Part shown: positions 5,369 to 40,361 of the stretch, piece by piece | Layout of the letters: each line of letters begins with the position of its first letter | How positions within the stretch are numbered: position 1 is the stretch's first letter | Assembly (NCBI GenBank): GCA_000708835.1 | Contig: DF237624.1 | Span: forward strand, 6,138 to 47,065 | Origin: Klebsormidium nitens | Taxonomy: Eukaryota > Plantae > Klebsormidiophyceae | DNA: 40,928 nucleotides | Reading direction: 5' to 3' | Notes under the pieces: generated by a model | What the model was told of the DNA's origin: nothing | The model's database searches: none | The model's input: the letters and a program-made list of their open reading frames with translations, nothing else | Made by a program: the position numbers and the translations under genes

Positions 5369-5490
5369 CAACTTTTAAGCATCCAGCGCACCCTGCAGAC
5401 ATCGGGCAGCCCAAGATAAGTGCAAGTAAACTGCAAACCCCACTGAACCTACAAAGTTTAGAACAATCTTGGCAAAGGGTAGCTACTTAC

Positions 5491-5774: not shown

Positions 5775-6111
5775 CTGCAAGGAACGCCAACGGATCAATT
5801 CATGGACGCTGCTCAATTGCGGTCGGCAAAAGCTGGCAATAGGGATCTGCTCGCAGAGAATGGTGAGCCCAAGGCAAAACATGCCTGGCGCCGGGTTCGG
5901 CCTGATCATGCCTCACTGCCTCTCCTCAAACGCGCACGCAGCATCCCGGTCCGTATCCTAGTACCGCTAGGCGCCGGAGAGCTCTCCCTGCTCGGGGCCG
6001 TCCTCTTCCGACGCCCGACCTCCTGCATCCAAGCATCAGGACACTCCCGTTTCAGTGCAGGGCTCTCCTGAACTTAGGGAAACACCTCGGCGCTCAAAGG
6101 TCATCATAATC

Positions 6112-6651: not shown

Positions 6652-6836
6652 GCGCAACCTCAGTAGCAACGGAGCGAGGCTGGCTGTCAGAATGCGGGTC
6701 GCTGCTGGAAGGGCCCGTCTCCTGCGAGACAACGAGGGGATGAAGGGTTCAGGGACAAAGGGTCCCGCGGACGATCCGATTTCGACCATGGACACAGGCT
6801 TAGGGAAACGCTTTGGCCCTCTTAGGGCATCGAATC

Positions 6837-12950: not shown

Positions 12951-13886
12951 CCCAAGCCCAGCCATGCCACGAAGAATTTCCAGAAGGTTCTGCTGATCGA
13001 TTGTGATGAACGATGATCAATCCGCCGTTGTAAAGAATACCCTTCCTGAAACAATTGTATGTTCGATAGGCTGATGTCCTGCTCTTCATCAAAGAGTGAA
13101 ACACAATGATCCTTAATCCTCCTGCTTGCGAGCCAGCAACCGAGAATTCGCTGACCTTAAGAGCTGGCTTTCGAAGAACCAAACAAACGGTCTTTTGCTC
13201 ACCGCGTCCTGCATCCCAATCCAAAGCTTCTTTGAGCACCCGCGCACTGTGACGCTTTGCTTTCTGATCAGCAGCGCTGAAGCGCCGACCTCTTGGAATT
13301 CTGCGAGCAGGCTGCCCTTCATACTCTACCCCTTTTAAGCTCTTGCACCGCCGCCGGCGAGGGACAGGAATGTCATTGCTTCGCGAATCGACAGCAACGA
13401 TTAGAAACTCCTGCCTTTCTGCACTAATTGTGATGCGCTCCCTGTACTCTGCGGCGCGCGCAAAGCGTGCAGCCTGGCAGACCCTGTGATCAGACTTGAC
13501 CCTGCCACAAGGCCGGCTTGTCGCCATTTTCTAACAAGCACTAGCTCCGCTGGTCACATTTGCAACCACACGAAAGAGAGGTCTGAATTGCCCACAGCGA
13601 CTGAGGCACAATTTAACTCAGAGCAGACCCACAGCTTCAGAACAGAGCACAATACTGAAGTGTCAGAGCAAGGCACATTGTTTGCCCCCAAACGCTCAAG
13701 CAACTCCAGAGACATGGTAATGATGGATTCTAACTCCCAAGTAGGAAAGGCTGCCAGCGCAATCACTTACTCCAGGCCTGAAACGACTTGACCACTTGGC
13801 GCTTGCAGCTCCGCCCGGCAGTTGCTATTAGTATTTTACTCAGCTTTGCATGAGGCAAGTTGCAGCACATTGGCAGCTGGAGACTA

Positions 13887-14176
13887 CCGTAGTCCAACGT
13901 AATGATTCCGAATAAATAAATAATTATCTGCGTTCGGAAAGTCAGAAATTCGGATTTCCCATTCGGAAAGTAGAATTTCGGAAAGGTAAAATAACTTTGA
14001 AATAGTCCTCGGAAGCCGTAAAACTGCCAAAAACAGCCGAAAACTCCCCTTCCAAGTCAGACCATAGGGCATTCGGATTCTGGTCGGAATCAGCATACAT
14101 AATTCCACTTATTTGGTCGGATTGTTGGAAAATAATTTGAAATAAAATCGTTCGGAATCATCACGTTGGACTACGG
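13887..14176. mobile_element. Non-autonomous MITE, Tc1/mariner(pogo)-type, 290 bp
   Basis: 26-bp TIR CCGTAGTCCAACGT(A/G)ATGATTCCGAA with one mismatch. TA on both sides (13885-86, 14177-78). AT-rich interior with repeated TTCGGA/TTCCGA motifs. Confidence 0.9.
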
Positions 14177-20098: not shown

Positions 20099-20806
20099 TA
20101 ATTTTGACCAGTGAGAACCTGACACGTGTCCCTCCGAACAAATATTCCGGAACTTCCTCCAATTCGCTTGAGGTTCGAGCCCAGTCAGGGGATACTGTCA
20201 CCAAGCAGACCGTTCCCATCACAGGACTTCGATAAAAGACGACGTCGTTTGATATTGATTAGTTCCAGCTGAGTCTCCATGGTTACCTCTGGTACCTTTA
20301 AGCGGTCAGCGTTTAGACCTCCTGCTAAGGGTTGACATCGCTAAAAGCGGCCGGGCTTTAGGGAGCTGCAGGGCAGCTTGGTGTGGCTCAGGGCTTTCAG
20401 GTTGCCCGGCAAGTTGGTGCACAGGAAATGGCATTCTGCGGACTGCTGTAGTGGCGCATCTCTGAAGCGCGTCTGAGGATATTGTGAACGTAAGTTGCTT
20501 ATCTGGTTGCCGCAATGCGCACTCGTGATATAGAACAATGTGTCAGGCAGAGGTTGGCTCTGCCGCTTTTGGACCAGCTTGAAGTATGCAACTGAGCGAC
20601 TCAGTCTGAAGAAGGTGGATGCGGTTTTTAAGGGTTGTTCCTCGGGTCTTTGTAAGTCTGCACTGGTGAGAGTTGCATACGCAGTAAAGGGCAAACGCCT
20701 CGAAATTGGTGCATCTGGATGTTTGTTGAGACAAATTATCATTGAGTCTCCTATATTCCTCTTGGTTTTGTAGGGGCAGGAAAGCTGGTCCTTGCACTGA
20801 CTCATC

Positions 20807-23800
20807 ATGGCTAGAGGCCGGCCTCATGGCCGGTCCAAGTCCGATCACAGAGTCTGTCAGGAGGCTCGTTATGCACGAGCCGCTGAGTACAGGGAGAGAA
20901 TCGCCATCAGTGCTGAGCAGCAGGAGGCACGCATTGCTGCTGTGAATGCTAAGTGCAACATGGAGGATGCCCCTTGTAGGCAGCGGGGGCAGAAGTCGAG
21001 GGCGTCGAAGACCAAGGCAGAGGCGGCTCGGATGTTCACAGGGAGCCGTGCTTGCAAAGAGTCTGGCAGTGCAAGGAAGAAAGCAAAGAAGGGCCTCGAA
21101 CATTCGCTTGGCAAAGCTGCAGAAAGAGGTGAGTTCTGGTGCATGGCTTCTCTGATTGGTTTACCTTGTGAAGCCGAGGCAGAGCAGAAGCTTGAATGCT
21201 CTGTGCTGCAAGATAGAAAGGTGACTGGTGGGCTGGTGCAACATGTACGAAGAAGAGCATCTCGGTGTAGATGGCGAGAGAAATGAAGCTGGTACACTAC
21301 TTTGGGTAGTGCGGTCAGAATGGTGAAGGATGGCTGGCTCTGCAGTTAAGAACAGGGTTCTGAGGGGTTTTAGCGTGCATGGCCGTTTTTAGAATGTAAC
21401 AGACTTTGCCTCTTCCTCTTTGGAAAATGAGAGGCTAATTCTTGGTACAGGCTGTCTATCACAAAGTTGTAAGCAGTCTTAGCGGGCATGGCCGCCCCTG
21501 GGGTGTACCAAGCTTTGCCTCTTTCTCTAAGGGATATAAGAAGCTCATTCTTGGTACACGCTGGCACTTACACAAACCTCCAAACCTTCCACTGCCGAAG
21601 AAAGACTGCAAAAGGCTGGGGCATGCACCAAGTCTTGCATGCTTTTCACATCTACACTCCAGGTTCATCACCAAACCCCTGCGCTTCTTCATTGCAGACT
21701 TGCACAGTCTTCACTGCCAAGCGTGCGGCGCAACTGCAGAGTATGGGCTGAGGGGAAGCAAGGAGGGGGGCAGCGTCAAGTACACGTGCAGAGCGCACAC
21801 CACATTGAATGGTTGTTTTCGAGTCGACCGAGACCGCGCAGGTGCGAGCATTCGGGGAGCCTGCTCTTGACATGGTCTGCATGCAATGCAACGCTCATAG
21901 CTGCTCTCCCATTGGTTAGCAGTGGGCTTTTAGAAAAGACTGCCAAGAGATCTACAGCTCTGTATGCTTTGCAGGTTGGGCAGAGGACCAAGAGATGCGG
22001 CGCCTGAGAGCACAGGAGAGGAGATTGGAAGAGGAGCTGCGGCAACTCGGAGGGGCCTCGTTCACTGCAAAATCGACATCAGGTGGGCGTGTGGCGCGAT
22101 CTTTCCTCTCAATGGTGCTCTTGTTTTAACTGCATGGGGCAGTGAGTTCCCTTGCATGCCCTTGCCTCGTCATTGATTTCCTTGCTGTGTAGTGATATGT
22201 GATGCTTTTGTGATGGCTAATGAGTCCCTCCACTGTTCTTCTGCAGCTTGGAGTGAGTCGCAAAGTACGGGGGATGGGGCTTCAGTGCCCATGAGCAAGT
22301 CGCTCATAGGTAAGGCGCTTTGGTTGCGGTTCTGAAGCTGCAATCACTTGTACGGCTGTTGGGCTTGCTCTGTGTTTCAAGCGCTTGTAGCACTTGGACT
22401 AATCCTACTAGACGGTTCTAAAGACTTGCATGGTGGTCTTCGCTCGTGCCCTGATGAATCGAGCTGCTTCCAGCATTTAGCAATTTAACCTGTTGTTTTT
22501 CATGTGCAGCCACACTTCTCATGATTGGTGGTATTGAAGTTAACCCTGGACCTACTGCATACGAGGTGAGCCTGGAAAAGGTATTCTGCAGTTCAAGGAG
22601 GGACTGGTAAGCACTAGTTATACTCGAATAGCAGGAAGCTTCTTCTTGCTCAAAGTCCATGCCACTGAGAGAGCAGGCAATAGATGTTGTACCAATCATC
22701 AATGTCTCTTGACCACAGATTGCACAAAACAAAGAGAGCTGGCTAGGAGCTTATCCGGACATTGACAGAACGCTGCTGGATTACCTGGCACTGAAGAACA
22801 TCAGGTTGGCCAAGTGGAGAGAGTCCACATCCGAGCAGCGCTCCAGTCTTCTAGACCTGTGGGCACGCCGGTACACTGGGGAATGGTTAGGGGACTGGGA
22901 CATGTTCCTCATAGGGGTTCCGGGTAAGCAGCTCCCTCTTCTGAATCAGTAGGCTACCTTCGATGCAATCCGCTTGAGATCAGGACTAGAGGTTTCCATG
23001 AATTCAGAAACGAGGATTTGAGCTTTCCGGTGTTGCTGGTCAGCATGTAGCGGCGGGGAAGCTTGGAGAAGATGGCATGACATGGGCCTTCTGCTGATTG
23101 GCAGTGTTGACAGGTGACACAGTCGCTTCTTTGTCGATCTTGCCGAGGACACTGTTGCATGCTGGGCATGGAGTGTTTCCTAGCAAAAGCGGAGTTGCTC
23201 TGGAGCAGAAAGTGGCCTGCTGTGCAATTGTTGGCAGACCAGGTGCAACTCATGAGCAGTAGGGTGCTTGTCAGCCACCCCCCTCGTGCAATCTGCCAAA
23301 GGCTGGTTCTTCACTTGGCTTGCTGTCTTCGAAGCTCATCCACACGAGACCCGGATCTGCTTATCCTTCTGCTACAGCAGTTGCAAAGAGGGGTCAGGAT
23401 GTAGGAGCGGGCCCATCTGCCGATGTGGAGATGAAGGATGTCAATCCAGGGAACCAAGTTGGTAAGAGCCACTGTTCGGTCTGTATGGTGCAAGGCCTCT
23501 TTTACAAATTGCTTCTGGCAGCTTGTGCTTGCCTCAGTGTGCTGACAATCTCATGTAGTCACTCGAAAGGAGAACGCATTGCTTCTGTATGCAGTACATA
23601 GAGCGCCCCAGCGCAAGGCAACTCCTGACTGCCAGTTTGTGCTTGCAGGCAGGAGTTATGACACGTTTGTTGCCGCACTTGGCGCAAACAGCGAGGGGAT
23701 CAACAAAAGAAGAGCAAAGGGGGGCATCTTCACCCCTCGAATAGAGACAGTCCACAAGATCTTGTCGCGCTTGCAAGAAACGCTGGTGTTGCTTCTGGCA

Positions 23801-26397
23801 GCAACTCCGTGCTCGGGGAAGACGTCCATCTGTCAGCTCGTGTACGAGGAGGCAAGGAAGAGCCGGGTTTATGAGTCTGAGGATGTCATATACGTCAATT
23901 GCGCCGAGGTAGGAAGTGGGGGAAAGTCGTTTGAGGATGTGTTCTTGGAACAAGCCAGAGTTCCCTTCAACGAGGCCTCAAAGTCGCCCCCGAGCAGTCC
24001 TGAGAAGCAGCTGCAACGGTCGGCAGGCGATGCGAGTGGCTCCCAGGCTCCGCTATCCAGGAAGAAGCTCATTATTCTGGATGAAGTGCAGACAACGTAC
24101 GACACAAATGCGCCGGGGCACTCTCTCCTGTGGCCGCTGCTCAAGCGCTTGCTGGCTAGCAAGCAAGGCGACGTTAACTTCCTTCTGTCAGCATCCAGGG
24201 GCTCCAACCCCGCTGCTGAAGGTCTGCTGAGCACCCCCTGGGGGTTCTCTGATGATCAGCGTGTCCCTCTCAGGTGAGGCCTCCCCTGGACAAGCAATGG
24301 CTCGTGCCCTCCAGAATGCCCTCCCGTTTTACTTTCTTAGCAAAGATGCCGTCATACTGGAAAGGGTCTGGCTCTTTTGAAATTGACAAGCGGATAGATC
24401 TCAACTCTGGAAACAGCACAGCTGATTGTGCCATGCAGGGTACATTTTCACACGTCCCTCCTCATTGCAGGCCCCGCCCCGATCACCCAATGGTGGCAGG
24501 CAGCAACATCCCAGAGCCAGCGTTGCAGTTCACAATGGACGAATTCCAGCAGCTGTTTGACTCTTTCCGGAAAAGCATCGGGTTTGGTGGGGAACAGCAA
24601 CCGCTTCAAACGCTGTATGACATCATTGAGGCGACCACGGAGCGGCACCCTGGAAGCGTCCTCCACATCCTGGATGTTCTCAAGGGTCGCTCTCCATCCA
24701 ATTACGCTGGCCGCGCAGCTGAGTGGGCAGCCAAGGAAGTGGAGTTTGTGATATCTCCAAGACTGCTCGAGACTCTGTCTGGTACAAGGTCATTTCCAAC
24801 GTAAGAAAACCAAGCTCTTCTCTCTCTTATCGCAACCGCATGGTGGCGAGTAACTAGCATTGCCTTTTGAGAGTCAGCAAACAGTCTGGCTTACTTGTTC
24901 TATGCTCCCGCGCTTGCTTGTTGTCCTCAATGCCCGGGGTGACGCGTTAAGACACCACAGGCCCACACAGGCTGGCAGTCCATTACGTTGCTTGTGGCTG
25001 ACTCCCATATGTCTCTGTTCAGAGTGAGCGAATTTTGGAAAGACAAGAGGGCGCTTGACCTCATCAGCAAGCTGGTAGCATCCGGAGGCAAGGTAGGTAG
25101 AGGCGTTGAACCTGATAACTCCTGTGGCCTTATATCCACATGCATCATGGTGGTTGTGCACAAGTAGCGCTGTCCCTTGTTGGATCGAAGCCTCTCAGTC
25201 ACAACGCGCCTGTGTTGCAGGAAAGTTTGGTGGCGATCCGGAACGAGGATTCGGACTGTGCCGATAAGGCTGAGGCGCTTGCCAAATCGGGGTACATGCT
25301 CATGGAGCAGAATGTCGTCTCGTTCACCAGCAGCCTGCACATGGAGTTTTACCGATACAACTTGGCGAGGCGGAAGTGGGGCACACCCAAGTACATGCCG
25401 GGCTCCATTGAGACCTTCCTGGCTGAGGCCCTCACGAAGATGCATCCTCCTGTGCTTCAACACAGTCTGAACCTGAGCACCCGGTGTGGTGTCCTGGGGG
25501 GTGTTCTGGAAGCACACTTCCAGTTCGAGCTGTACTCGTGAGTTTCCCTTATAACATGTCATTCGCATTTGAAGCGATTAGGCGATGCTGTCAGTCTTAA
25601 ATGGTTTTGATATTGTGCTAAGCAGACTTGACACCTTCAAACGTCTCCACCATGGCCCCAATGCATTAAGCGCCAGACAGGCGCACAGTTGAGGTAGTTT
25701 CGTCGGCTGTAGATACAAGCAGACTGTAACGTCCTCTTCTTGTTTGATACAGTGCCATCACCAGCCTCCTGCCAGAAGGTGACTACCTGTCACCAACTGT
25801 CGGCAAGATATATGGGCTGGAGGCCTATGTGGATTTTGTGCTGCATGGGTCTAGGAAGTGGGCGCTCGAGCTTTTGGTTGACGGGAGGGATCTGAGAGAG
25901 CACGAAAGAAGGTGCGCTCTGCAGTGCTGTGTCTTCCTCACATTACTAACGAAGTCTTAGAGGACCTGCCTAGCACGAGCAAGCACGATGACTACAGTTG
26001 TGTTTAGGCTAGCAAGACGAGATCGTAACGAGTGATTAGTTCTATGCAGCCTCACTAGCCACCAGCATCGAACACCTTGCTCCTTGATGTGCCCCATGAT
26101 TGAAAAGAGTCTCCGGATGAGGAGCACAACTTCAGCAGTGGCTTCGGCATCTTTCTTGCTCATTCACGTTTGCACTCCTGCAGGTTTGAGCCGAATGGTA
26201 GATACCACCCAATGGTATTGGGCAAGCAGATTGATGCCTGGATTGTGGTGGACCTGCGGAACCCAAAGACTGGCAAGCCGAGACGCGCGAGGGGGCCGGG
26301 AGTTTGCCACGTGTTCTTTGATCCAACTTACGAAAGAGCCACGATTGACTTCGGTAATGGTAACGAGCAGCATGTGATCCTTACAGGTCGGGCGTAG
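20807..26397 (+). CDS. Predicted 898-aa polyprotein: basic/EsV-1-7-like Zn module - 2A-like (GGIEVNPG/P) - CR header - CR NTPase - CR REase
   Basis: 13 GT-AG exons, all phase-compatible and stop-free: 20807-21128, 21698-21841, 21975-22082, 22247-22309, 22510-22565, 22719-22923, 23378-23461, 23649-24273, 24471-24800, 25023-25092, 25221-25537, 25753-25911, 26184-26397 (2697 nt). Motifs ATPCSGKTS, IILDEVQ, EAHFQFELYS, VDFVL..WALELLVDG..EHERRF. Confidence 0.8.
21380..21560 (-). repeat. Two degenerate family-A cassettes in intron 1 of the right module
   Basis: gtaccaag...cttggtac at 21505-21557 and a second copy ending ttcttggtac near 21450. They are in the same intron as the pair at 12740 and 12885 in the left paralog. 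Confidence 0.7.
22510..22565 (+). other. 56-nt micro-exon encoding the 2A-like core (A)TLLMIGGIEVNPG/PTAYE
   Basis: Direct translation. The G/P junction is at 22550/22551. Canonical 2A is D(V/I)ExNPG/P, and here G replaces D. Confidence 0.8.
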
Positions 26398-27036
26398 TTG
26401 CTCGTGAAGTTCGGTCGTTTGCCCAACACTCGAGCACACTTCTTCTCGACAATTGTGCCTTCTGCAGCGGAAAGAAGTCTTTTCGGTCGACCCTAATCCA
26501 CAATATATGAAATTCAGCGGACACAACTGCTTATCTTGAACCATTCAGCATTGGCTTGTTTTGATTGGCAACATGCAATTACAATGATGTTGCTCGGACT
26601 GATATTTGTGTGCAACATGTGTTGGTCGCTAGTCTACATTGCAAAGACGCCATGGCGCGCTCACCTCTTGTACTGGATCATAAAGTTCGAGTGATTTGGA
26701 TCATGCGCTACTTGCAAGAAGGATTGCATCTGAGCGCATCCTACATGATGCATTAGATCAGAAGCAAGTCATTGAAAGTGGACGAATTGCAAAAACAAAC
26801 GGCGCACTCATTTGTGCTTGAGGGCCGTTGGCTTGGAGAAAGGGTATCCAGGTCGCAAGATCCATGGACTCACTTTAAAGACGTCCGGTTTGCTGGAGGT
26901 GTGAATGTCTGGAAGCGATGTTAAGAGGGAACAGGAACAACTTCTAAGCCGATCTGTTGTCCTAGTAGTCACCTGCCCCTGCCATGATGATAGCCTCTGC
27001 TTGAGCCGTCCGGATCACACTTTGCATCCGTACCGC

Positions 27037-27057
27037 CTAACCAAGTGATTGTTGGCA
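27037..27057 (+). repeat. 21-bp direct repeat, copy 2
   Basis: Identical to 20078-20098. Confidence 0.9.
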
Positions 27058-27344
27058 AGCCCGCTAATCCCCGCGCGCCACGTGTACCCCCGGCCGAAAA
27101 ACCTGGCCCCCTGCCCGAACCGGCCAAGCTGCCCCTCGAACTGGCCTGGGTTAGAGACTTTCTGGGTTACCTTGAAGGGAAAGAAACCAGCCCCAAAAAT
27201 TTCAACGGACTCAGGAACTGCATCGGACCCGGAACAAGGCACTGATCACGTCCGTTTCGACCACGTGCCATGCCGGTCGAACCCTGAAGTTCCCGAAAAT
27301 CCAGGAGTCAGGCCAGAGAGACGGCCAACACTCACAACGTACTG

Positions 27345-27480
27345 CAACAGCTGACTTGGAGCTCGCTGAGACACCTGAGTCAGGCCTCCTTTCCAGAGAC
27401 ACAGCCAACGCTCAACCGCAACAGCTGAGTTGGAGCTCGCTCAGACGTCTGAGTCAGGTTTCTCTTCAGAGAGCTCTCGG
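27345..27480 (+). repeat. 74-bp tandem duplication
   Basis: caacagctga(c/g)ttggagctcgct(g/c)agac..ctgagtcagg starts at 27345 and 27419. Confidence 0.8.
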
Positions 27481-27583
27481 AATGGCTTCGGAATCGCTCA
27501 ACCGCTTCAGATCTGCTCGATGAAAGTCTGACTCAGGCCCCTCTCGCGAGAGGCAAACAATGGGGCTTAGGGCAGCTATGCTC

Positions 27584-27590
27584 TATATAA
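27584..27590 (+). promoter_or_regulatory. Candidate TATA box (TATATAA) upstream of the right primase-helicase gene
   Basis: Motif and position only, ~350 bp upstream of the candidate ATG at 27933. Confidence 0.25.
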
Positions 27591-27932
27591 GGAGGTCTCA
27601 TACCTCTTTTCAGATCAGTCCATGTCTTCCATCCTTCAGCCCTCCCTCCTCGCAACATCCCAGCAGCAACTTCTTCCGACCTGCATACACTGTTCTGCAG
27701 CGCCTTCTTCAGAGCAACACCAACAGCTTCCTTCAGACTGTAGGAGACCTTTACAGCATGCCTTTCCTGCTCTGAGCGGCCCTCTTCCTGCCTGCGACCT
27801 CCTGCACGCGAGCATCGATTTCTTGCCCAGTTAGGGAAGCCAGGAAGCTCCGAGGCAGTCTCAGCATCCGGGCGCAGCTGCCCAACGCAGCTTGCAACAG
27901 CACCAATACAGCTGCAACTGAAGACTGCTGGC

Positions 27933-30900
27933 ATGGCTTCTGACCTGCGATCCCACTGGGAAAAGTAAGCCGCTGTTCATGAGCTGAGTACGGCCTCAGT
28001 ATGCAAAGCCAGAAGGGTCTTCTTGATAAAATTTGATTGAGACTGGGACTGATCATGATGGAGTTGCACTGGAAGGGCTTTCCATATTTGATGTGCTTCG
28101 AATCATTCGAAGAAGACCTGTCCATGTTCTGTCGCTTCTTTATATGTGTCTCTGATGCAAAACCTGGACATGGCTGTCGTGGAGGTTTAGAGCAAGAGGT
28201 TTAGACGGTGCTGCTGAGATCACTGAGCCCTGTCCCCCAAAACCCAAAGGTTGACCTGCATCTCATTTGTTTTTCTCCAGTGATCCTTCCTCCTCTGAGG
28301 AATCGGAAGGAGAGGATATTGAAGGTGTCGAGTATGCGCCCCGCTCTGTTGGCGGCTCCCAGTCTGGACGCTCGCTGGAGGAGTTCCTTCAAGACGAAGA
28401 CTCTGCCAGCATCCAAGGCCCGTCCTTCTACAGGGCGTTCAGCAATGGGACAAGCCTCAGCCCAACTCAGCTGCCAAGGGGCGTCTCAACTTTGCTCAGC
28501 AAGGTAGAATTTGCTTCGGTGATTTTATCTGCTTCTGCTTCTGATTTTGCCGTGGTTCCGAAACAGCTTCTGTGATTGTACAACGACACCTTAGTTGACT
28601 GCCATCTAAATCTGTCGAGTGAAGCACCGTTGAGTAGGCTTGGGTCTGCTGCTTGAAATGCATAGGTTGCTCACCGGCATGTATGCCTTACAGGGTTACG
28701 TGCCCACCTCTCCATTTGCTTGGACTTCTGGTAGCGCCTTCGGAAAGCGGATATGCATAACCCCGCCAAGCAACTTCCAGGTGAGTTAAGAGGCTGATTC
28801 AAACTTGCGCAACTTGTGATTCAAACTTCGTGATACTGCACACGTTGATTGCAGTCGTTCTCCAATCGTTGCACCTGAGAAGATCCCATCAGCGTGGATC
28901 ATTTCTTATTCCAGGCTAGTAGTTGCTTAACAGGACGGGCCTTAGATGCTGCCTACAGTGACCTTTCCAGTATGCTGACAACCGCCTCAACACTAGATGA
29001 CGGTCTGTTGCACTTTGTAAAGGCTCTTGAGTCTGCTTCTAACTTCTTCCATCCTTTGGTCCACTTCTCCCTCATTTACTCACTGCCTTCTCCTCATGTA
29101 GGCGCCATCATCTCGTTGCATCCTGCAAAACGTTGGTGGCAAGAGGCTCGCAAGTGAAGCTTCAGCTGGCAAATGCAGTCCGAGTCCAACATCGAGAAGG
29201 AGAGGCCTCGCAAAGAAGCGTCGGCGCGTCATCCTCTCGCAAGACTCAGAAGAAGAGCGGCCGATGGCCCCCCTGCCTCTTGTAGAGGTGAGTCGTGCTT
29301 GCATACAAGTTTCGTCCAGGTTTTGCATGTATGAGATGCGAATTTTCAAACGACAAAACGTGGATATCAGCTGGAGTCCCTTTTCTGCAGCCAGCTCTGC
29401 TCGTATTCTGTGTTTTCTTGATGCAGAAGCTGGACAGGCTTTTAGAACTCAAATGTCGAGGCACGTCCCTAAGCTTGGAAACAAAAGAAGTGACGGTCCA
29501 GGTTCTGTCGTTTCTTTATACGTGTCTCTGATGCAAAACCTGGACGGCAAAAATCTTGAGGCCCCAGATCCTTCACTCTTGGAAGTTACGAAGTCGAGGC
29601 ACGGGCCTAAGCTTGGAAACAAAAGAAGTGACGGTCCAGGTTCTGTCGTTTCTTTGTACGTGTCTCTGATGCAAAACCTGGACAGCACAAAACTTCGAGG
29701 CCCTAAAGCAGTCGAATACCTTCGCTACGATGCAGAAAGCGAGCAGTGCCAACTGCTTAGCAATCAGATACCTTCAACGCCTTCCATCTCTTGACCTCGA
29801 TCAAGTTCTTTGAACCGGGTTGCAAAGCCAGCAATTCTGACGCACACTATATCGTCCTTCTGCAGGTAGAAATTGGTCAATCGGTTGATAGGGTGCCCGC
29901 AACTGATCGCAGCCAAGAGCATGGTTTTGGACAAGAGCAAGCTCAGGTACAGCGCCTGGCCATAAGGTCTGTTTAAGGTTAGCTGAAGGCAAGTTGGTAC
30001 AAGCTCGCAGCAGACTCGATTGCAGAGACGCACGTGTGAGCAGTCAAGTCAGGGACGAGAAACTCCGATTCAGACCTTCAAAGCATTACAGCACCTCGCA
30101 GCCGTTTGTGCAAGCTGATTCATACATTAAAAGAGCCGCTCACAGCTGAACGGCTTCCTCATGAGTGTCGTTTCAAATGCTTGCTTAAGTGAGCCGTTCC
30201 CTCCGTCAGCTTCCGAAGTGTTGTCTCCTTTTGGCAGCGTTGTTGCAATACTTCTGCTCGATTCACCTTGCAAAGACTAGAGGCTGCAAAGAATCAATCA
30301 TGTGATGCCCGTCTAGCAGAAGTAGCGTAAATTCCCAGCCCCTGTTGCAGATCCCTGGTCGTGTAGTCGTGCACACTGAGCACGATGGTGCGGTTCAGAC
30401 GGTGCAAGAAAACAAGCTGGGAACGGCCTTCTTCTTCAAGTTCAGTCGAGCAAAGCTCCACTACCAAGATCCGAAGAATGGGCCGCAGGGTTTCAGCAAG
30501 CGGCACGCTGCTCTCTGTGATCACACGGTGGAGTTGCATCTTCTCGACCATAAGGGCTATCGTAGCTACGGGTCATACCCAAACTGGCCGACCGCGCGGG
30601 ACTACACTCTGCAGCAGCCTTTCCTCGAGGAGGTGCTCGTCGAAGGGAGACCCTGCAAGCCGTTCCTAGATATGGAAAGCGATCAGGGGTTGCCTAAGGG
30701 GGAAACTCTTCGGAGCGTTATCAGCCAGTTTCAAGACGCCATCACGAAGATCTTTGCGGAGGACTACGCAGTCGAGATCCAAGAGCGGGATTTGAATCGG
30801 GTCCACTGCGACTATGGACCCGGCGGCAAGTTCAGCGTCCATCTCGTCATCTCAACGCACGGGCCGCGGCAATTGGTCTTCCGCTCCAATCTCGCCCCTA

Positions 30901-33900
30901 ACGTTGACCCGCAAGGAGCAGGACACCTCGCCCGCAGGCTTGCTAAGGTTCTCCCCCCGTCCCTGGCTGACCTCATCGATCAGAGCGTCTACACTCGGAA
31001 TCGAGGCATCCGGATGCCTGGTTGTGCAAAGCCCTCCAGACCTGACTGCCCGCTGCGTCCTCTGGACCACACCAAGCCATATGCTGACAGCGTCATCACC
31101 TGGTTCGACAAGGTAGGTAGCCTCATGTTGACGACAGCTTGTTTGCTGAAGAGACCATTCGCTGACCGGGCAAGGTAGAGGCAAGTTGCTGTCCGACCTT
31201 TTGCACAAACCTAGACAGACATTGTGCCAAGTCACTGCCTAGTCTCGTGTTGTCCTGTGTGCTTCTCACAACGGAACTTCAAAATGTGTAGCAACGTGGC
31301 AAGTTTTAGCCTGACCCTTCTCTACCTTCGATTCAAACTCAAGCTTACACTTCAACCTTCAATATGAGCACGTTTCGAAGTATCATTAGGCAACTTGACC
31401 TGGCCTCTCGTAAGAACAAGGATCGCCTGTCTAGGTTTCGTCAATTATATATATGCTTCTCTGATGCAAAACATAGACAGCATATATTTCAAAAATTCAA
31501 TGTCCTCAGCATCTATGTTTCGTCAAATAGAACAGCAGCCTTGCTTAATGGTATGAGGTCGATTCAAGAAGATGCTCGAACTTATGGTTATAATCCAAGT
31601 TTACAAGTGCGCATCATCTCTGACCTAGGTTGCGGCACCCCAGATGTAGGAAATGCCCCACTGCTGGCTGACGTCATCGATCTGCTTCGTTGTTTTGACC
31701 AGGAGTTTGACTTTATCAAGGTCCCTGTCCTCGTGCCTGATGCTATGCGACAACACCGGCGCCCCACAAAGCCCGCGGAGATGGCTGTTCTCAGCGTCAC
31801 CAATCTGGACGCCTACACGGTCCAACGCTGCCTAGAGCTCTTGCAAGCACGCTTGCATCCAACGGCCTTCAAGCGAGGAGCGAGTAGGGCGCTCAACTTC
31901 AGCTGGACGGACCGGGAAGGAGAGCCGTGCTACACCAGGCACACTCACTCCGGCGGGCGCGATCTTTTGTGCATCGTGAACGAGGCTCAGAACGCTGTCT
32001 TTGCCAAGTGCTCTAGTGAGCGGGTCGACTCCACGACCGGAGTGTGCTGCAAGGAGCAGCCTGCCCACTATCTCNNNNNNNNNNNNNNNNNNNNNNNNNN
32101 NNNNNNNNNNNNNNNNNNNNNNNNNNNNNNNNNNNNNNNNNNNNNNNNNNNNNNNNNNNNNNNNNNNNNNNNNNNNNNNNNNNNNNNNNNNNNNNNNNNN
32201 NNNNNNNNNNNNNNNNNNNNNNNNNNNNNNNNNNNNNNNNNNNNNNNNNNNNNNNNNNNNNNNNNNNNNNNNNNNNNNNNNNNNNNNNNNNNNNNNNNNN
32301 NNNNNNNNNNNNNNNNNNNNNNNNNNNNNNNNNNNNNNNNNNNNNNNNNNNNNNNNNNNNNNNNNNNNNNNNNNNNNNNNNNNNNNNNNNNNNNNNNNNN
32401 NNNNNNNNNNNNNNNNNNNNNNNNNNNNNNNNNNNNNNNNNNNNNNNNNNNNNNNNNNNNNNNNNNNNNNNNNNNNNNNNNNNNNNNNNNNNNNNNNNNN
32501 NNNNNNNNNNNNNNNNNNNNNNNNNNNNNNNNNNNNNNNNNNNNNNNNNNNNNNNNNNNNNNNNNNNNNNNNNNNNNNNNNNNNNNNNNNNNNNNNNNNN
32601 NNNNNNNNNNNNNNNNNNNNNNNNNNNNNNNNNNNNNNNNNNNNNNNNNNNNNNNNNNNNNNNNNNNNNNNNNNNNNNNNNNNNNNNNNNNNNNNNNNNN
32701 NNNNNNNNNNNNNNNNNNNNNNNNNNNNNNNNNNNNNNNNNNNNNNNNNNNNNNNNNNNNATCGTGAACGAGGCTCAGAACGCTGTCTTTGCCAAGTGCT
32801 CTAGTGAGCGGGTCGACTCCACGACCGGAGTGTGCTGCAAGGAGCAGCCTGCCCACTATCTCGGTCGCTTGTACGAGGACGTGGAGACTTGGAAGGCAAG
32901 CGCCATTGAGATCGACATGCGCTACCTCGAGCGAGACCCCCTTGCTGCTGGACCGATGGATCTGCAGCTGATCCGGATGGGCTCGAAGGGGATGACGGAC
33001 AAGATTCTTCTCAACAACGTGGTCAACAGTGATCCCGCAGGTGTCGATGGCTACAATTACAAAGTGGAAGAGCTGTCGCTACTTGCTTGTAGTCTCTTGT
33101 GATCCAGCAACTTGCACCAGCTCGTTAAATTTACCTCATGAACCGGATTCCAATCGTGATGACACCGTGTTTCTTCTGCTTTGTCTCAGACTTTGACCGC
33201 ACGTATGATGGGCTGATAGAGGGTAACTTAGCTTCAAAGTCAAGTGGTTTGCCTGCCCACCGTTGAAGTAGATTCTCCGCTTTTCAGGTGGCAAGCTGGC
33301 AAGTTCCAGGCGCTCCTCGTTCGAAGCCCGATGGGCACAGGCAAGTCCGAGCTGGTCAAGCGGATCAAGGTGGAGGAGCCCGCCCCCCAGAAGATTTTGC
33401 TGGTCACTTATCGGCAGACGCAGGCGGCTGATGCGCACGGCAAAAACCCCGAGTTTGCCCACTATGCGGAGCTCAAAGCCCTGCCATCCCAGCTGAATGA
33501 GCAAGGGGACTTCGTTGCTCCTTTATCTGACAGAGTGCGGTTTCCAAAGGTCGTAGTCCAGTTCGACAGCCTTAACCACCTCCTCGCTGAGAGCAGAGTG
33601 GTCGACTCATTCGATCTCGTAATTCTCGACGAGAGCGAGTCCATCCTGGCCCATCTTTCAGCTGATACATTCTCCAACCGACACCGGACCGTCAACTTCC
33701 TGATCGAGCTTTTGAGCCAAGCAAAGCGGATTATAGCGCTGGATGGGCATCTGGCTCAGCGGACGTTCGACTTTCTTACAATGAGTGGCATCCCGTGCGG
33801 GCCTGTCGTGATCAACAAACATCTACCAGAGCGTCCGCTCGAGTTCACGTTTCTGGAGAAGGACGAGGGGAAGGCTTACTGGGAAAGGTCCATCTGGACT

Positions 33901-35869
33901 GCTCTAGGGGAGGGCAAGAACTGCGTAGTATACAGCATGTCGTCAGAAGAAGTGTACAGGTTGAGGGACGCCGCGGAAGCCACAGGCTTGCTACAAGCTT
34001 CAGAGATACTCGCGATCACAAGGGCTTCTTCTGGGGACATCAAAGGGGGCATGAATAACGTGAACCTCTCTTGGAAACGCCGTTTGGTCATCCTCAGCCC
34101 CACGGTGGAGGCAGCGGTCGACTTTTCGGCGGAGTGGTTCCATCGCAGCTTCATCTACGTCTGCGCACACAGCACCACTCCGAGGGGCTTAGATCAGATG
34201 AAGAGCCGCGTTCGGAAGCTGAAGGAACCAGAAGTGTTGTGCTTCGTGCAAGCTGGCATCGCTTTGCCGACCAGGACCGGGCTGCGCGCTCAAGTTGCGT
34301 GCGATGAAGGTGAATCTATAGCCACTGCGTATTTGCTTGTTGTACCAACGGATCTCATTTGTTGCCAAGTACCGAAGTTTTGGAAAAGCATGACCGAGGA
34401 AAAGGGCCGAGCCTGGGCTTAGGGTACGTGAGATGTTTTTGTCGACTCCAGAGTGCTCACGGCGGGAAGTCACGGTCGTCCAGTTTTTGTCAATTATATA
34501 TATGCCTCTCTGATGCAAAACCTGGACAGCTGCACCAAGGAGGACAGCTGCAGCAAAACCTGGACAGCAGCTTTGCTTGTCTATATTTTGTCCATTGCGG
34601 AGGCACGAGCTCGCATTTATGGACATTTTCGAGAAACAGGTCGGGCCGGTAGTAAGCAGCACCTTCGATCTGAATCTATCAAACGTTTATTCTTGTACTC
34701 CGCGTGCAGACCCTGTGGGCTCGACTCCGCCTGTCTACCTGACTACCATGGGGCCCAAACAAGCAGCAAGTCGGCGGCTGGGGGTAGAGGAGTCCTATCA
34801 GTTCTTGCGTTGGATACACAAGAACGTGGACGCCCGTCAGGAGACGAGGCAACGAGGGGAAGGGGGACAGAGCATCTTCGCGCCGATAGAGGACGCTGTA
34901 ATGAGGGTGCTAGCACACAACGAAGCTGAAAGCAGCAACAAGAACTCGCACTTCTATGAAGTCTTCACTGAGTTGCTCGAGAGCGAGGGGCATATTGTGA
35001 AGGGGGTGCTCCAGTTGGACACCGCGCCAAAAGTCTTGGCTGGCCCGGAAGAGGACGAGGAGGGGCCTTGTCAAAGCTATCTAAAGCGGCGTCTGCTGGA
35101 GGCGCCAGACATCTCGCTCGAGGAGGCTAAGCACCTTCAGCTTCTGATTAACAAGAAGCAAGATCGGGAGGGGGACTTTGCGAAGGTGGAGCGGTTCAAC
35201 TATATGAGGTTTTACAAGATTCGACAGCTTGATGGACCCTTTCTAGACATCTTTGGGGGGCGGCATCTCGACTGCCTCACCTTCCTGCTTCAAGTGGTCG
35301 ATCCTGCATATCAATTCCCCGAGGACGAGATCGGCAGAGCGAAGTCCTTGCCTCTCATGGCAAAGCTTGCGAAAGAGGTCATTTGTGCACTGGGGCTCGA
35401 CAATCCGTTGGACTATGAGCGCGTGACAGAAAAACTTGAGGTTCTGAGGTCGAAACTGGCGGCAACGGAGTACTTCCAGGACTACGGAAGATGTGTTCGA
35501 CTGTTCAGCGGACGCACCATCCAACAGACGTGCGATCTAGGCGATCCAAAGGCAGTCTACCACGCCTTAAACCACATCTTCAACCGAATGGGCGTCCATG
35601 TGCGGCAGGTGCGGTTGGGCCAGCAGAAGAAGGCTGACGAGGCTACCAAGAAAAGGGAGTACCTGTATGGGGGATGGCAGATTGAGCCTGAGTGTTCAGG
35701 AAGAACCGTAGGCGCAAAGTACATGTTACAGTTGCTCATGTTGCAGGTGGAGGGGTCTTCATTGATGCTCGAAAATCTGGACTCAAGCCTAAGAAGGCTC
35801 ATAGAAAACGCGCCGTTCCAATACAGGCATCTTGTAGAAGCCCCATGCATGTTGGGGGCCGTAGTTTAG
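27933..35869 (+). CDS. Spliced AEP primase - Zn-binding segment - UL9/OBP-like SF2 helicase - C-terminal domain, right copy, apparently open
   Basis: Exons 27933-27964, 28281-28503, 29102-29287, 30351-31112, ~31721-33040 (across the gap), ~33272-34309 and 34710-35869. Motifs PCKPFLDME, KFSVHLVI, LIDQSVYTRNRGIRMPG, RSPMGTGKS, VTYRQTQA, LVILDESESILAHL, ILSPTVEAAVDF. The 33040/33272 junction and the start are uncertain. Confidence 0.8.
28120..34527. repeat. Family-B inverted-repeat cassettes (~50 bp, GTCCAGGTT...AACCTGGAC), 7 copies, all intronic in the right primase-helicase gene
   Basis: Copies at 28120-28169, 29314-29365 (inverted), 29390-29435, 29496-29545, 29634-29683, 31429-31478 and 34478-34527. 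Most share the inner CTCTGATGCAA. The copies at 29496 and 29634 lie in a 138-bp tandem duplication. Confidence 0.9.
32075..32760. other. Assembly gap whose flanks overlap by an identical 102 bp
   Basis: 31973-32074 is identical to 32761-32862. Collapsing the overlap keeps the reading frame. Confidence 0.95.
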
Positions 35870-36113
35870 GCTATAGTTCATTTAAAACAGACTGTCAAGT
35901 GTAAGATAAACTGATGCACCAAGGAGAAGTTGTAGCTAACATGAAATTCGATTGAGAGATATTTGTGTGCAACAATTCGTATTCTTCAATCAAATCGAGC
36001 CTACTAATGCAACACATGGCATGCCTGTGTCTAAACTTGAAACGTAGCTGATAATAACAAAAACATCTTGATGTATGACGGTGTTAGAATTCGCCACATG
36101 AAAAAGGTGTTGT

Positions 36114-36992
36114 TCATAAATGTATTGTTCTTTTTGCGAGGAGATTGATGATGGTCACCAGGCCTCGTGCACAGTTGACCGCGGTTGGGCGCTGGCCATG
36201 GCCCTCAAATTTGAAGTCCTCCACCGATTGGAGGACTTCTGGATTTTGCGATTTGAGGTTCTCCCAACTTTGATATGGGTTGATAGACCCGGCCACCTCG
36301 CGGATGACGTCCACGACACTCACGCGTGGTGGGGTCTCGCTCGTCTTCCTAATCTTCATGTCCTCGCCCAAGCCTAGCTCCCCGTGGATGATCAGCTGCT
36401 TGAGGTCCTCCACGACCCTCGGTCCCTTGACCTTGCCAAGGAAGTCTGCCACGAGCCTGGCGCACTCCGAGCGAAAGCCTTCTGCCCTCTTGCTATCGAG
36501 GAGGCCGACTATCATCTCGAAGTCGCTGGCATGGAGGAGCGGGCTCTCCTTGAGGCCGTCGAAGCAATGAATCTCAACATTCAGGTCGTCATCGCCCTCG
36601 GCGAGTTCAAGGAGCAGGTCTGACAAGATCGACAGCGGGCTATACATGTCCTAGCGGCTCTCCTCGATGCGGATGCTTGGTAGGACCTCAGGGCTTGGCA
36701 CCGAGTCCGCTGCTCTATCCGCTTCCTCGCGACCTTCGGGCTCAATATTCCCCGAGTCGACCTGCGATCGTGAGTCAGAAGAAAGCATGATAAGCTGAAC
36801 CGTTATTTTCAAAATCTGGTGCCAGTACGAGGACTGCTGAGGGTAAGCAAGGCTCACAACCCGTGCCTACGAATAGTCAAAAAATCCCTTACCTCAATGT
36901 CTACTTGAGCCGCCTCCTGCACCTCTGCAGCCTCGATTGCTTGGTGCTCTGCCTCAAATGCAGATGACAGGATGGCAAAAAAGGGTTTCATG
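36114..36992 (-). pseudogene. Bro-N/KilA-like DNA-binding protein with two tandem domains, one intron and an in-frame TAG
   Basis: IRKTSETPPRVSVVDVIREVAGSINPYQSWENLK...FKFEGHGQRPT...IINLL, plus an upstream partial repeat (IVGLLDSKRAEGFRSECARLVADFLG). ORFs 36651-36857 and 36114-36647 are in frame across the TAG at 36651-53. Phase-0 donor at 36892. Confidence 0.6.
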
Positions 36993-39078: not shown

Positions 39079-39285
39079 CAATGTGGTAAGTTTGTTGACC
39101 AAGCAGCCATCGTCCTGCCCAAACTTCAGCAGCCAAGGTTGAAATTATGGAGACCAATTCCGGGCCATTGATCCCGGCCAGCCGAGGATTCTGAAGCAAA
39201 ATTTCCTAGGGGACGCATCTTAAAGAGGTGCCCGTTTCGATTCCAGAATTATTATAGATGATGTATGATATAGGGTTCCCAATTG

Positions 39286-40361
39286 ATGGATTTGGAAGCA
39301 TCCGTTCAATCGAGTACAGCATCCACATCTGACAAAGGAGGGACTAACGAAAGTGTGCGAACAATTGCATCAGGTGAGACTGCTTTGCGCAACCTGTTTC
39401 AAGACGGAAAAAGGGCTGAAATCACGATTTTGCAGTACCTAAAAAGTGTGCGAATGATTTATCATTTAGTCACAGGCGAAAACGTTTTGCCTTCCACGTT
39501 AGATTGGATGAAGGATGCATCTATTATCATTGAAAAGCTCGACAAAAGATACCCCAATCCTGGAACTTTCAAAAATAAGGTAACCCCGTTAATGGTCATT
39601 GCTCACGAAAAGGGATGGGAAGGCACCTATAAGAAATACTTCGAGAGCTTCTCCGTCAAGAAAGTGGTCCGGATGAAGAAGGCCGATGAGCAAAAGGCTA
39701 CCGAGAAGGAGGCTGCCAACTGGATAAGCATGACCGAGCTCAAAAGCAAAGCGGAAGAGCTTAACAGGCAGATAAGGAGGAGCATCATGCCAAATCATAA
39801 AAGTAATGGTGGATCAAAGCTGAGCAGAGATGAAGTAAAAGTTGTGTATCAGCATCTCTTGATAGCCTTCAATACACTTGAGCCCCCTAAGAGAAGGGAT
39901 CTCAGCGGTCTCCCTCTCCAGAAAGCAGACGGAAGCTTCTTTTGCGAAGAAGCAAGGGCAGCATATAAGGATACTGGAAACTGCCTTCGTGAAAGCACAG
40001 ATGGCGATTTCGTGCTTGTACTGAAGACCTATAAAACAAGCCGGCGCTACGGAACACGCGAGTTTCAGCTCAGCCAGAGACTCAGCAACTACATCCAAAG
40101 ATCCATCGAGCTCATTCCTCGAGGTTTTTGCCTGTCACTCGGTTGGGGGATACAACAGAAGCCATGAGCGATAACTACCTTACCAAATTTACTGGGTCGA
40201 TAACGTTCCCTTCAGGGAAGCGTTTGAACCAAAACCACCTTAGACACCTCTACATCAGCGAACAATTTGCGAACGATCATTCAATTGCTGAGAGGAAGCA
40301 ATTAGCAGAGAGGATGTTGCACGACTTGGGGACAGCAATGGTTACATACGAGAGAAAGTGA
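39286..40361 (+). pseudogene. Tyrosine recombinase/integrase (PLV/virophage-like type), split by a 1-bp frameshift
   Basis: Catalytic pattern R (EPPKRRDL), K (YKTSRRYG), NHLRH, H (RMLH) and Y (TYERK). ORFs 39283-40167 and 40128-40361 join as IPRGFLPVTRLG if one T is added to the T5 run at 40125-40129. Confidence 0.8.

Follow-up and report, generated by a model that had tools for sequence, protein, structure and literature searches.

Here we show that the window (the whole stretch of 40,928 nucleotides of streptophyte algal DNA that was analysed) carries, at 27933-35869 on the forward strand, a spliced gene whose protein joins, in order, a PrimPol-like AEP primase, a C-H-C-C zinc motif, a UL9-like SF2 helicase and a C-terminal domain. 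The best explanation overall, which we hold to be probable, is that of a transcribed nine-exon nuclear fusion gene, likely of giant-virus descent. The gene, hereafter the right copy, belongs to a Klebsormidium family that has multiple copies and splits into two deep subfamilies, each with a member in this window. If its likely origin is accepted, the locus offers a well-documented case, splice junctions included, in which a giant-virus replication gene has resided in a streptophyte genome long enough to gain introns; the gene has also multiplied, is still transcribed and has an apparently intact active site.

Introns were mapped using contigs of RNA-like runs from three studies (X4, X9 and X13) and of one DNA run (X1), all placed on positions 27500-36500. 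Eight introns are removed from the right copy, leaving nine exons: 27965-28280, 28504-28693, 28781-29101, 29288-29865, 29947-30350, 31113-31702, 33027-33284 and 34310-34709. Every one of the eight joints occurs in X4, X9 and X13 alike, whereas no contig of the DNA run shows any of them. Joined by script, the exons form a single open frame of 1363 residues with its first ATG at 27933 and its stop codon at 35867-35869; one spliced ORF with these same ends had been proposed in a sequence-only reading of the locus, and the RNA-run joints bear it out. The AEP, zinc and helicase exons are brought together in frame by the joints at about 31110>31701 and 33026>33285. No contig or read covering the whole mRNA, primase and helicase together, was seen in the RNA-like runs, and the continuity of the transcript is deduced from the chain of short contigs and the unbroken frame.

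Seven of the eight introns have GT..AG ends. The exception is intron 7 (33027-33284), whose main in-frame splice form reads TG..AG or GT..CA, with no GT..AG reading; a minor form (33041-33287) has GT..AG ends but is out of frame, and a DNA-run contig spanning the intron (32982-33331) shows 0 differences from the window. A ninth joint, 31972>32761, bridges a run of N (32075-32760) in RNA-like contigs, 102 nt of which can be placed on either side. Because the flanks of this run are an exact 102-nt duplicate and the joint bridges it, the N run is an assembly artefact inside exon 7; 31973-32760 was rejected as an intron, being made of duplicated flank plus N, i.e. a false assembly gap.

The first five exons encode the N-terminal region, and exons 2 to 5 were delimited by joints, splice ends and translation. 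The coding part of exon 1 (27933-27964) runs from the start codon to the joint 27964>28281, and its frame stays open upstream as far as 27744. Exon 2 (28281-28503) is rich in serine and acidic residues, and is followed by exon 3 (28694-28780), exon 4 (29102-29287) and exon 5 (29866-29946). Exon 4 matches residues 33-105 of K. nitens P0006 and contains a basic KKRRR cluster followed by acidic residues, the cluster being a possible, predicted nuclear localisation signal.

Exon 6 (30351-31112) encodes the AEP primase domain, at about residues 243-466 of the protein, which was assigned by profile match, invariant columns, an AlphaFold2 model and Foldseek. Motif I is D310-x-E312, motif II S365-x-H367 and motif III D413...R424...K430. 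In an alignment of 74 sequences, the columns of D310/E312, S365/H367, D413, R424 and K430 are invariant or near-invariant, and D310, K363, S365, H367, D413 and K430 are invariant throughout. The domain thus keeps every catalytic residue. The family profile matches human PrimPol (E 6.2e-11), and structure prediction agrees: the AEP exon was modelled with a pLDDT of 90.9, and Foldseek retrieves PrimPol at 1e-10 and giant-virus OBP-type proteins at up to 6e-18. The closest viral folds are the 'origin-binding/SFII helicase' proteins of Yasminevirus, Marseillevirus, Catovirus and Bodo saltans virus, together with ASFV F1055L and OsHV-1 proteins; the closest solved fold is human PrimPol, followed by poxvirus D5/E5 and HSV UL52.

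Exon 7 (31703-33026), supported by motif alignment and RNA-like contigs, encodes a linker and the zinc motif between primase and helicase. Its residues C533, H539, C560 and C572/573, predicted to bind metal, stay conserved across the aligned family. The helicase core occupies exon 8 (33285-34309). A helicase of the Herpes_ori_bp type had been suspected from the sequence, and the HMM search found it: PF02399 matches with E 2.9e-14 and a score of 52.6 bits (cut-off 20), the match being confined to the helicase, N-terminal part of the 820-position model. The family profile also matches solved HSV-1 UL9 chains (E 3e-14), with Walker A and DExx aligned, and the columns of Walker A (G653-T-G-K656-S), motif II (D751-E-S-E) and motif VI (Q940...R944-x-R946) are invariant in the family alignment. 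Exon 9 (34710-35869) holds the C-terminal domain, which is conserved among members of the family, and the stop codon; an HMM of the family C-terminal region matches it with E 5.6e-65, and no sequence match was found in Pfam, PHROG or PDB. Profiles and alignments therefore uphold the earlier claim that AEP motifs I-III, a C..H..C..C segment and OBP-type SF2 motifs occur in one ORF.

This architecture is already known and is not new here. The sequence-only reading had implied that the pairing of an AEP with a UL9-like helicase is rare, which does not hold: in a preprint (10.1101/2024.02.29.582850), the fusion is described for mimivirus R8, ASFV pF1055L and Ostreid herpesvirus 1 (OsHV-1). R8, pF1055L, the Marseillevirus 'helicase origin-binding protein' and the OsHV-1 relatives have the same order in one polypeptide, i.e. 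an AEP with intact motifs, a zinc region and a UL9-like helicase. Nucleocytovirus proteins with AEP and UL9-like helicase are the nearest structural neighbours of the right-copy AEP, and most relatives are of similar size (about 1030-1170 aa); structure-based sequence identity between the viral proteins and the right-copy AEP is only 11-24%. Unlike the viral R8-type proteins, the right copy is a nuclear gene with eight introns, and its product begins with an acidic/basic extension of roughly 240 residues; it is part of a host-resident multicopy family with no viral genome around it. It is a cellular-genome member of the R8/pF1055L-type protein family, not a viral gene.

The pairing has also been reported from an algal nucleus. 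Delaroque and Boland reported in 2008, from the genome of Ectocarpus siliculosus, an R8-like 'OBP' ORF with AEP and UL9-like helicase, read there as a large-DNA-virus relic; it is described as a complete ORF of a brown alga, without a zinc domain and beside phaeovirus-like repeats (PMC2373305). Compared by those descriptions, the present family differs in belonging to a streptophyte alga and in having a zinc motif, many paralogues, and introns with splicing.

Three better-studied enzymes share parts of the protein. HSV-1 UL9 has the same helicase core, with PF02399 above threshold and a profile E of 3e-14, but lacks an AEP domain; the right-copy C-terminal domain has no Pfam or PDB sequence similarity, so that origin recognition as in UL9 is at most a possibility. 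Human PrimPol (5L2X, 7JK1) is the best solved match of the AEP (Foldseek 1e-10, TM 0.56-0.65); its DxE, SxH and D...R...K motifs align with those of the right copy, and a C-H-C-C motif likewise follows the AEP, with a ligand spacing that presumably differs from the C533/H539/C560/C572-573 found here. PrimPol is, however, a single-copy cellular gene without a helicase, and the right copy was rejected as a cellular PrimPol orthologue on account of its fused helicase, its multicopy family and an identity to PrimPol of 18-20%. Poxvirus D5 and ASFV C962R, the second tier of structural matches, also fuse an N-terminal AEP to a replicative helicase, but theirs is SF3 whereas that of the right copy is SF2 of the UL9 type, so that a D5-type primase-helicase (D5_C) was rejected as well.

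Since the GC content of the right copy equals that of its surroundings and the genes around it are intron-rich, transcribed, spliced and of algal type, the locus looks like ordinary host chromatin, and the case for viral origin consequently rests on relatives and not on context. Giant viruses typically have proteins of this type, yet the recent integration of a giant-virus block, or contamination of the assembly with viral DNA, is extremely improbable: it is already contradicted by the removal of eight spliceosomal-type introns in RNA, and further opposed by the host-like GC, by the spliced algal-type flanking genes and by the presence of the stretch in DNA run X1, which bears the same organism label.

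Among relatives, the family search returned 216 representative clusters at E <= 1e-30, including many proteins of about 1030-1170 aa in which coverage starts near residue 20, i.e. with unchanged architecture. The closest relatives that have no introns are found on GC-rich metagenome contigs (57-67% GC). One of them, P0023 (the L061 ORF), lies 2.9 kb from a giant-virus D5/C962R-type primase gene (AEP_C962R, E 1.7e-39), and IMG/VR contigs L008, L011 and L012 carry ORFs of 1313-1353 aa with this AEP type and helicase. We infer the viral nature of the non-Klebsormidium relatives from a few neighbouring genes. For the right copy, the likely ancestor is thus a replication gene of the mimivirus R8/ASFV pF1055L type from a giant virus (nucleocytovirus).

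The same domain order recurs, as had been noticed from the sequence, in a very diverged left copy of the second subfamily (208-6028, reverse strand; PF02399 E 3.1e-8), which was delineated by tblastn with K. nitens P0167 and the right copy. Its N-terminal and acidic exons lie at 6028-5945 and 5774-5490, its AEP exon at 4867-3998, zinc-region exons at 3497-3375 and 3186-2965, helicase exons at 2350-1772 and 1358-864, and the beginning of its C-terminal domain at 330-208; it is cut by the window start, most of the C-terminal domain falling outside. Identity between the two copies is 34% in the AEP and 38% in the helicase, and that of the left copy to P0167 is 88-98% per exon by tblastn. The left copy is a decayed copy: its reading frame is interrupted by a stop codon at about 1050-1052, at a place where the K. 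nitens counterpart has W.

The K. nitens family comprises at least nine annotated proteins (50-98% identity), which are diverged and have variable N-terminal fusions; each of the two window copies has a K. nitens counterpart at about 90-98% identity. In the AEP tree, the right copy groups with seven K. nitens proteins in one clade (SH-aLRT 100), and the clade of the left copy has a support of 99; the tree is unrooted, and the sister relationship of the two Klebsormidium clades has a support of only 82. Apart from JGI entries, which fall inside these two clades, Klebsormidium is the only eukaryote named for any close relative among the matches. Right intron 6 and one left-copy intron occupy the same aligned position, both in phase 0 with GT..AG ends. 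As at least one intron position is common to both subfamilies, residence in the genome has probably been long; together with the AEP fold neighbours and the C962R-type gene beside P0023, this points to viral origin followed by long residence. Endogenisation would have come first, with intron gain and multiplication within the algal genome afterwards.

On another, quite improbable reading, the locus encodes the replicase of a discrete unit, either a self-synthesising transposon or an integrated virus, with boundaries in or near the window. In its favour, a zinc-finger leader gene, 'X', lies upstream of the primase-helicase on the same strand in both arms (13530-12485, reverse, in the left arm; 20774-21841, forward, in the right), and the zinc-finger and 2A-like part of X is fused to a primase-helicase in K. 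nitens P0003. A tyrosine-recombinase-like ORF (39274-40167, forward), 3.4 kb downstream of the right copy, has Preplasmiviricota viral proteins as its nearest protein-atlas clusters (0.97), which is a lead only, and it sits in a lower-GC block (0.45 against 0.51-0.55) and may belong to another unit. Against a discrete element, Pfam detected no capsid, packaging ATPase or DNA polymerase among the 130 window ORFs of at least 95 aa, a search that short-exon genes could escape; no terminal repeats or element ends were found in these ORFs or in the repeat search over 27500-36500, the only stretch searched, which yielded 0 inverted-repeat pairs; and the two arms are alike only at the protein level (34-50%). 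An element of the Polinton/Maverick or casposon kind finds no support, no polymerase having been found among the same 130 ORFs. The earlier proposal of an endogenised virus or self-synthesising element accordingly divides, its viral origin and long residence fitting the relatives and the common intron, and its self-synthesising part being unsupported.

By analogy with UL9 and PrimPol, the helicase would load on DNA and unwind it, the AEP would then synthesise primers, and the zinc motif would hold the initiating nucleotide. Since no polymerase is encoded nearby, primer extension would fall to one encoded elsewhere. Our best guess, and the weakest step in the argument, is that selection on virus-derived selfish DNA, not a host function, has maintained the family; going by sequence features and transcripts, however, a function kept by the host would account equally well for the intact ORF, for its conserved motifs and for the expression found in three studies.

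Domestication, in which a captured viral primase-helicase serves the alga's own replication restart or repair, is nevertheless unlikely in our view. It has parallels, since cellular PrimPol has been proposed to be of NCLDV origin and the Twinkle of organelles is phage-derived, and it accords with the ORF intact over nine exons with all catalytic residues, the splicing found in RNA-like runs of three studies, the host-like GC and neighbours, the close K. nitens counterparts of both window copies and the intron position common to both subfamilies. At least nine diverged paralogues, variable N-terminal fusions and a premature-stop copy are, however, features expected of a selfish or decaying family more than of an essential gene with a single function, and the lack, among the matches, of close relatives named from other eukaryotes also speaks against it.

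A broader and equally doubtful possibility is that the alga keeps a still-working giant-virus primase-helicase multigene family, acting either as a captured replication-restart enzyme or as the replicase of a nuclear selfish replicon. The former would be a second, independent PrimPol-like domestication with the helicase retained; the latter would be an undescribed nuclear selfish replicon, its genes expressed via 2A-like or ubiquitin-like co-translational separators. For the fusion gene of likely viral descent that we favour, the family can be used to ask what becomes of viral replicases after endogenisation, i.e. whether they are tamed, remain selfish or simply decay, and it is a reminder that algal proteins annotated as 'replication origin-binding protein' are fused primase-helicases.

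A hairpin-ended 50-nt repeat (28120-28169, 29496-29545, 29634-29683, 31429-31478 and one copy ending at 34527, forward strand) gave five matches against 0 expected and has no copy elsewhere in the window; all five copies are in sense orientation and lie within introns 1, 4, 6 and 8 of the right copy.

The right primase-helicase copy (27933-35869, +) is a nine-exon gene that is transcribed and spliced, and it encodes a single protein in which an AEP primase domain, a zinc motif and a UL9-like SF2 helicase follow one another. The window is eukaryotic DNA (GC 45-61%), and long open pieces (stop-to-stop frames) lie on its + strand between 30.3 and 35.9 kb. Contigs of three RNA-like sequencing runs from three studies (X4, X9 and X13) and of a DNA run with the same organism label (X1) were placed on 27500-36500. 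The term "RNA-like" reproduces a tool label ("RNA?") that is a guess, no run being on record as RNA; X4, X9 and X13 were taken as transcripts because intron joints are present there and absent from the DNA run. Eight joints, each removing 190-590 nt, occur in all three RNA-like runs and in no contig of X1, and seven of the eight introns have GT..AG ends. The primase exon is joined to the zinc-motif exon (31110>31701) and the zinc-motif exon to the helicase exon (33026>33285); the RNA-like contigs are short, and the continuity of the fusion is that of a chain of joints, no contig spanning all exons. A further joint, 31972>32761, crosses one of the two runs of N in the window assembly (9162-9838 and 32075-32760); 102 nt fit both sides and the flanks are exact duplicates, which marks the gap as an artefact of assembly that falls within an exon. 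When the exons are joined by script, a single 1363-residue frame results; its first ATG is at 27933 and its stop codon occupies 35867-35869, exactly the coordinates that a sequence-only reading had given to an intron-containing single ORF.

RNA-like cover is missing upstream at 26976-27642 (near zero in X4) and downstream at 35928-36500. From the stop of the upstream ORF at 26395-26397 and the ATG of the right copy at 27933, the two are taken as separate genes. A loose contig end at 35872, common to X4, X9 and X13, is similar but not identical to the window's 3' flank there, matches nothing elsewhere in the window, and probably comes from an allele or near-copy.

The main, in-frame form of intron 7 (33027-33284, +) has TG..AG or GT..CA ends and allows no GT..AG reading; a GT..AG alternative is minor and out of frame, and the DNA run is identical to the window across the site. 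U12-type splicing was rejected, since neither a 5' site nor a branch site of convincing U12 type is visible in the sequence. The left-copy intron in roughly this position (~2968-2374, -) likewise had no in-frame GT..AG in the reading tried. Introns 1, 4, 6 and 8 of the right copy carry five copies, all sense, of a 50-nt element (28120-28169, 29496-29545, 29634-29683, 31429-31478 and ~34478-34527, +) with 9-nt inverted ends GTCCAGGTT...AACCTGGAC and a conserved core TCTCTGATGCAAAAC; it is confined to these introns and absent from the at least 13 introns of the neighbouring gene. The element folds into a hairpin, with z -2.1 to -2.7; at one of its copies the contigs of the DNA run are interrupted, as happens at genomic repeats. 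Rfam gave no matches across the whole window, the element included, and a snoRNA reading was dropped on sequence inspection, box C being missing near the 5' stem; a miniature transposon and an intronic RNA element are both conceivable.

At the protein level, the piece 33232-34422 matches Pfam Herpes_ori_bp (PF02399; E 2.9e-14, 52.6 bits vs a cut-off of 20), and the AEP domain is evident only with profiles and structure. Searched as a single sequence, the AEP exon piece 30306-31178 gave no Pfam family at E <= 1 and no PHROGs match, and from the PDB only a weak alignment to human PrimPol (E 0.04) over the DxE, SxH and D..VYTRNR motifs. A profile of eleven family members, compared with solved structures, matched HSV-1 UL9 chains in its helicase part (E 3e-14) and human PrimPol in its AEP part (E 6.2e-11). 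In an alignment of 74 relatives, the AEP exon columns D310, K363, S365, H367, D413 and K430 (protein numbering) are invariant and E297, K306, P307, F308 (Y in most), V416, Y417 and R424 nearly so; they make up AEP motifs I, II and III. The structure of the AEP exon was predicted with the 74-sequence alignment at a mean pLDDT of 90.9, a first prediction from 11 sequences (mean pLDDT 49) having been discarded; among solved structures the model is closest to human PrimPol (E 1e-10, TM 0.56-0.65), and the AEP domains of poxvirus D5/E5 and HSV UL52 come next. Between AEP and helicase, the zinc-motif residues C533, H539, C560 and C572/573 are conserved across the family, and the helicase motifs are intact, including Walker A (GTGK656S), DESE (751-754) and motif VI (Q940, R944, R946). 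The C-terminal 400 residues make up a domain that is conserved across the family (HMM E 5.6e-65), with no match in Pfam, PHROGs or PDB sequences. The order of AEP, zinc segment and OBP-type helicase previously read from the sequence is thus borne out by PF02399, the PrimPol and UL9 profile matches, the AEP structure prediction and the conserved motifs. By analogy with UL9 and PrimPol, the SF2 helicase would carry out ATP-driven unwinding, the AEP would synthesise primers with the help of the zinc motif, and a polymerase encoded elsewhere would extend them.

The second, very diverged copy that had been claimed is present: the left copy (208-6028, -) repeats the domain order on the minus strand, with AEP at 4867-3998, zinc region at 3497-2965 and helicase at 2350-1772 and 1358-864, at 34% (AEP) and 38% (helicase) identity to the right copy. 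Exon by exon it is 88-98% identical to K. nitens KFL_012830020 (P0167, 1222 aa), residues 906-946 of which match window 330-208. What follows in P0167 falls outside, past the window's first base, so that the left copy is truncated by the window edge. At ~1050-1052 a stop codon replaces the tryptophan of P0167, and the left copy as assembled is probably a pseudogene. Between the acidic N-terminal exons of the left copy and a 2A-like exon, two tandem paralogous ORFs on the opposite strand (5971-6651 and 6804-7301, +; at most 63% identity over 87 aa) match no family.

Database searches place K. nitens proteins annotated "replication origin-binding protein" nearest to the right copy; one of them, P0006, is ~90% identical to it, and the window therefore derives from K. 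nitens or a closely related alga. A profile search of 1.84 billion representative proteins gave 5778 matches at E <= 1e-3 and 216 at E <= 1e-30; in dozens of proteins of ~1030-1170 aa the match begins near residue 20 and spans the primase, zinc and helicase positions. An unrooted AEP tree (IQ-TREE quick search, LG+G4), built from the 89 domain-covering rows of the 134 with a match, groups the right copy with all seven included K. nitens proteins (support 100) and the left copy with the relatives P0072 and P0091 (support 99); without a root, the two groups appear as sisters (support 82), and the next clade comprises ~50 proteins without taxon labels (support 95). Right intron 6 lies between K457 and E458 in phase 0, two residues before an aligned aspartate, and its counterpart in the left copy, a GT..AG intron between TWLEPPE and ARDEVKL, agrees with it in aligned place and phase. 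Both copies also have an intron in roughly corresponding positions after an L-N-x-V-x-N motif, with approximate ends in the left copy. The reading frame of the left copy changes further within the zinc region and between the helicase lobes, points at which the right copy runs on unbroken. That genes only ~35% identical have an intron in common argues for a split of the subfamilies inside an intron-splicing genome and against two separate viral insertions.

The fusion of an AEP with a UL9-like helicase is already known. Three sources describe UL9-related SF2 helicases with an intact N-terminal AEP in mimivirus R8, ASFV pF1055L and Ostreid herpesvirus 1 (mriyavirus preprint, 10.1101/2024.02.29.582850), an ORF with R8-like AEP and UL9 helicase in the Ectocarpus genome (Delaroque and Boland, PMC2373305), and phycodnavirus-like core genes listed for Klebsormidium (Gallot-Lavallée and Blanc, PMC5294986). 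Among the results listed in our literature search, with subscription journals and supplements outside its range, no paper paired Klebsormidium with an origin-binding protein or primase. That the right copy is a new member of this known kind of protein is well supported; what is unusual is the state of the primase-helicase, intronised, multicopy and expressed in a streptophyte alga.

Among predicted viral structures, the best neighbour of the AEP model is a Yasminevirus "putative helicase" (6e-18, TM 0.72); a Marseillevirus "helicase origin-binding protein" (1173 aa), a Catovirus "superfamily II helicase" (1112 aa) and a Bodo saltans virus "replication origin-binding protein" are also among the best, and ASFV F1055L and Ostreid and abalone herpesvirus proteins among its viral neighbours. 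On three IMG/VR contigs (L008, L011 and L012), ORFs of 1313-1353 aa have the right-copy AEP type upstream of the helicase, and in the vicinity of the L012 ORF is a weak, sub-threshold capsid match (Capsid_N, E 4.8e-4); other IMG/VR matches have a different primase type, with PriCT_2. A metagenome scan with the relative P0011 alone as query confirmed no relatives; the metagenome contigs L060-L066 hold intronless full-length relatives (36-41% identity to P0011, GC 57-67%). The one on L061 (identical to P0023) has, at a distance of 2.9 kb, a gene for a giant-virus D5-type primase with AEP_C962R (E 1.7e-39) and PriCT_2; other neighbours (T5orf172/MUG113, DUF5672, Peptidase_S74 and Mrr_cat) are compatible with large viruses and not decisive. 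We tentatively read the right copy as virus-derived selfish DNA still under its own selection, at somewhat less than an even chance.

Pfam scans of 130 window ORFs of at least 95 aa found no polymerase, capsid, packaging ATPase or integrase, the GC of the right copy equals that of its surroundings, and the flanking genes are intron-rich and transcribed; the locus is therefore not a recognisable viral block. The earlier observations were confirmed in detail and their interpretation partly right, the "self-synthesising" element being unsupported by these scans. Retention of a function by the host seems less likely to us than virus-derived selfish DNA, and a transcribed relic takes the remainder of our estimate. 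In both arms a zinc-finger leader gene type lies upstream on the same strand; the K. nitens primase-helicase model P0003 carries the zinc-finger and 2A-like part of this gene type N-terminally, which hints at a larger repeated unit.

The upstream gene of the right arm (20774-26397, +) has at least 13 introns, whose joints are found in X4, X9 and X13 and are absent from X1, and an open frame of at least 840 aa encoding, in this order, a C-x2-C...C-x-x-H zinc finger, a 2A/StopGo-like motif and an AAA/STAND-type P-loop NTPase. The motif, LLMIGGIEVNPGP in exon 22510-22565, is canonical and retained after splicing; a 2A-like peptide ahead of a STAND NTPase is reportedly also found in sea-urchin NACHT genes. 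A variant, QLMIGGIESNPGWP (W for the final P), follows the same zinc finger in the left arm (~8429-8313, -) and in P0003 (residues ~236-249). The relative P0001 has a ubiquitin-like domain (residues 272-326; PF00240, E 1e-5) upstream of an acidic region and the primase-helicase, and its printed sequence shows no such zinc-finger or 2A-like motif. Two different putative co-translational "separators" in front of one and the same primase-helicase would point to expression in polyprotein style; the models of these genes could be chimeric.

In a lower-GC block from ~37000, a 297-aa ORF without Pfam match (39274-40167, +; GC around it 0.45 vs 0.51-0.55 upstream) has as nearest protein-atlas clusters Preplasmiviricota viral proteins (0.97) and a tyrosine-recombinase cluster (0.96), and may be part of a separate integrated polinton-like element. 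At the window centre, a spliced gene (18874-18104 and 17710-16450, -), seen as a 2093-nt RNA-like contig, encodes a NACHT-like P-loop (PF05729, E 1.4e-5, narrowly missing the cut-off) and, after it, a 455-aa open frame without matches; with the upstream gene on the right, two STAND-type NTPase genes thus lie between the primase-helicase copies. The summed DNA-run contig depth of ~1690 at 13636-14302, vs 17-60 elsewhere, suggests a high-copy repeat.
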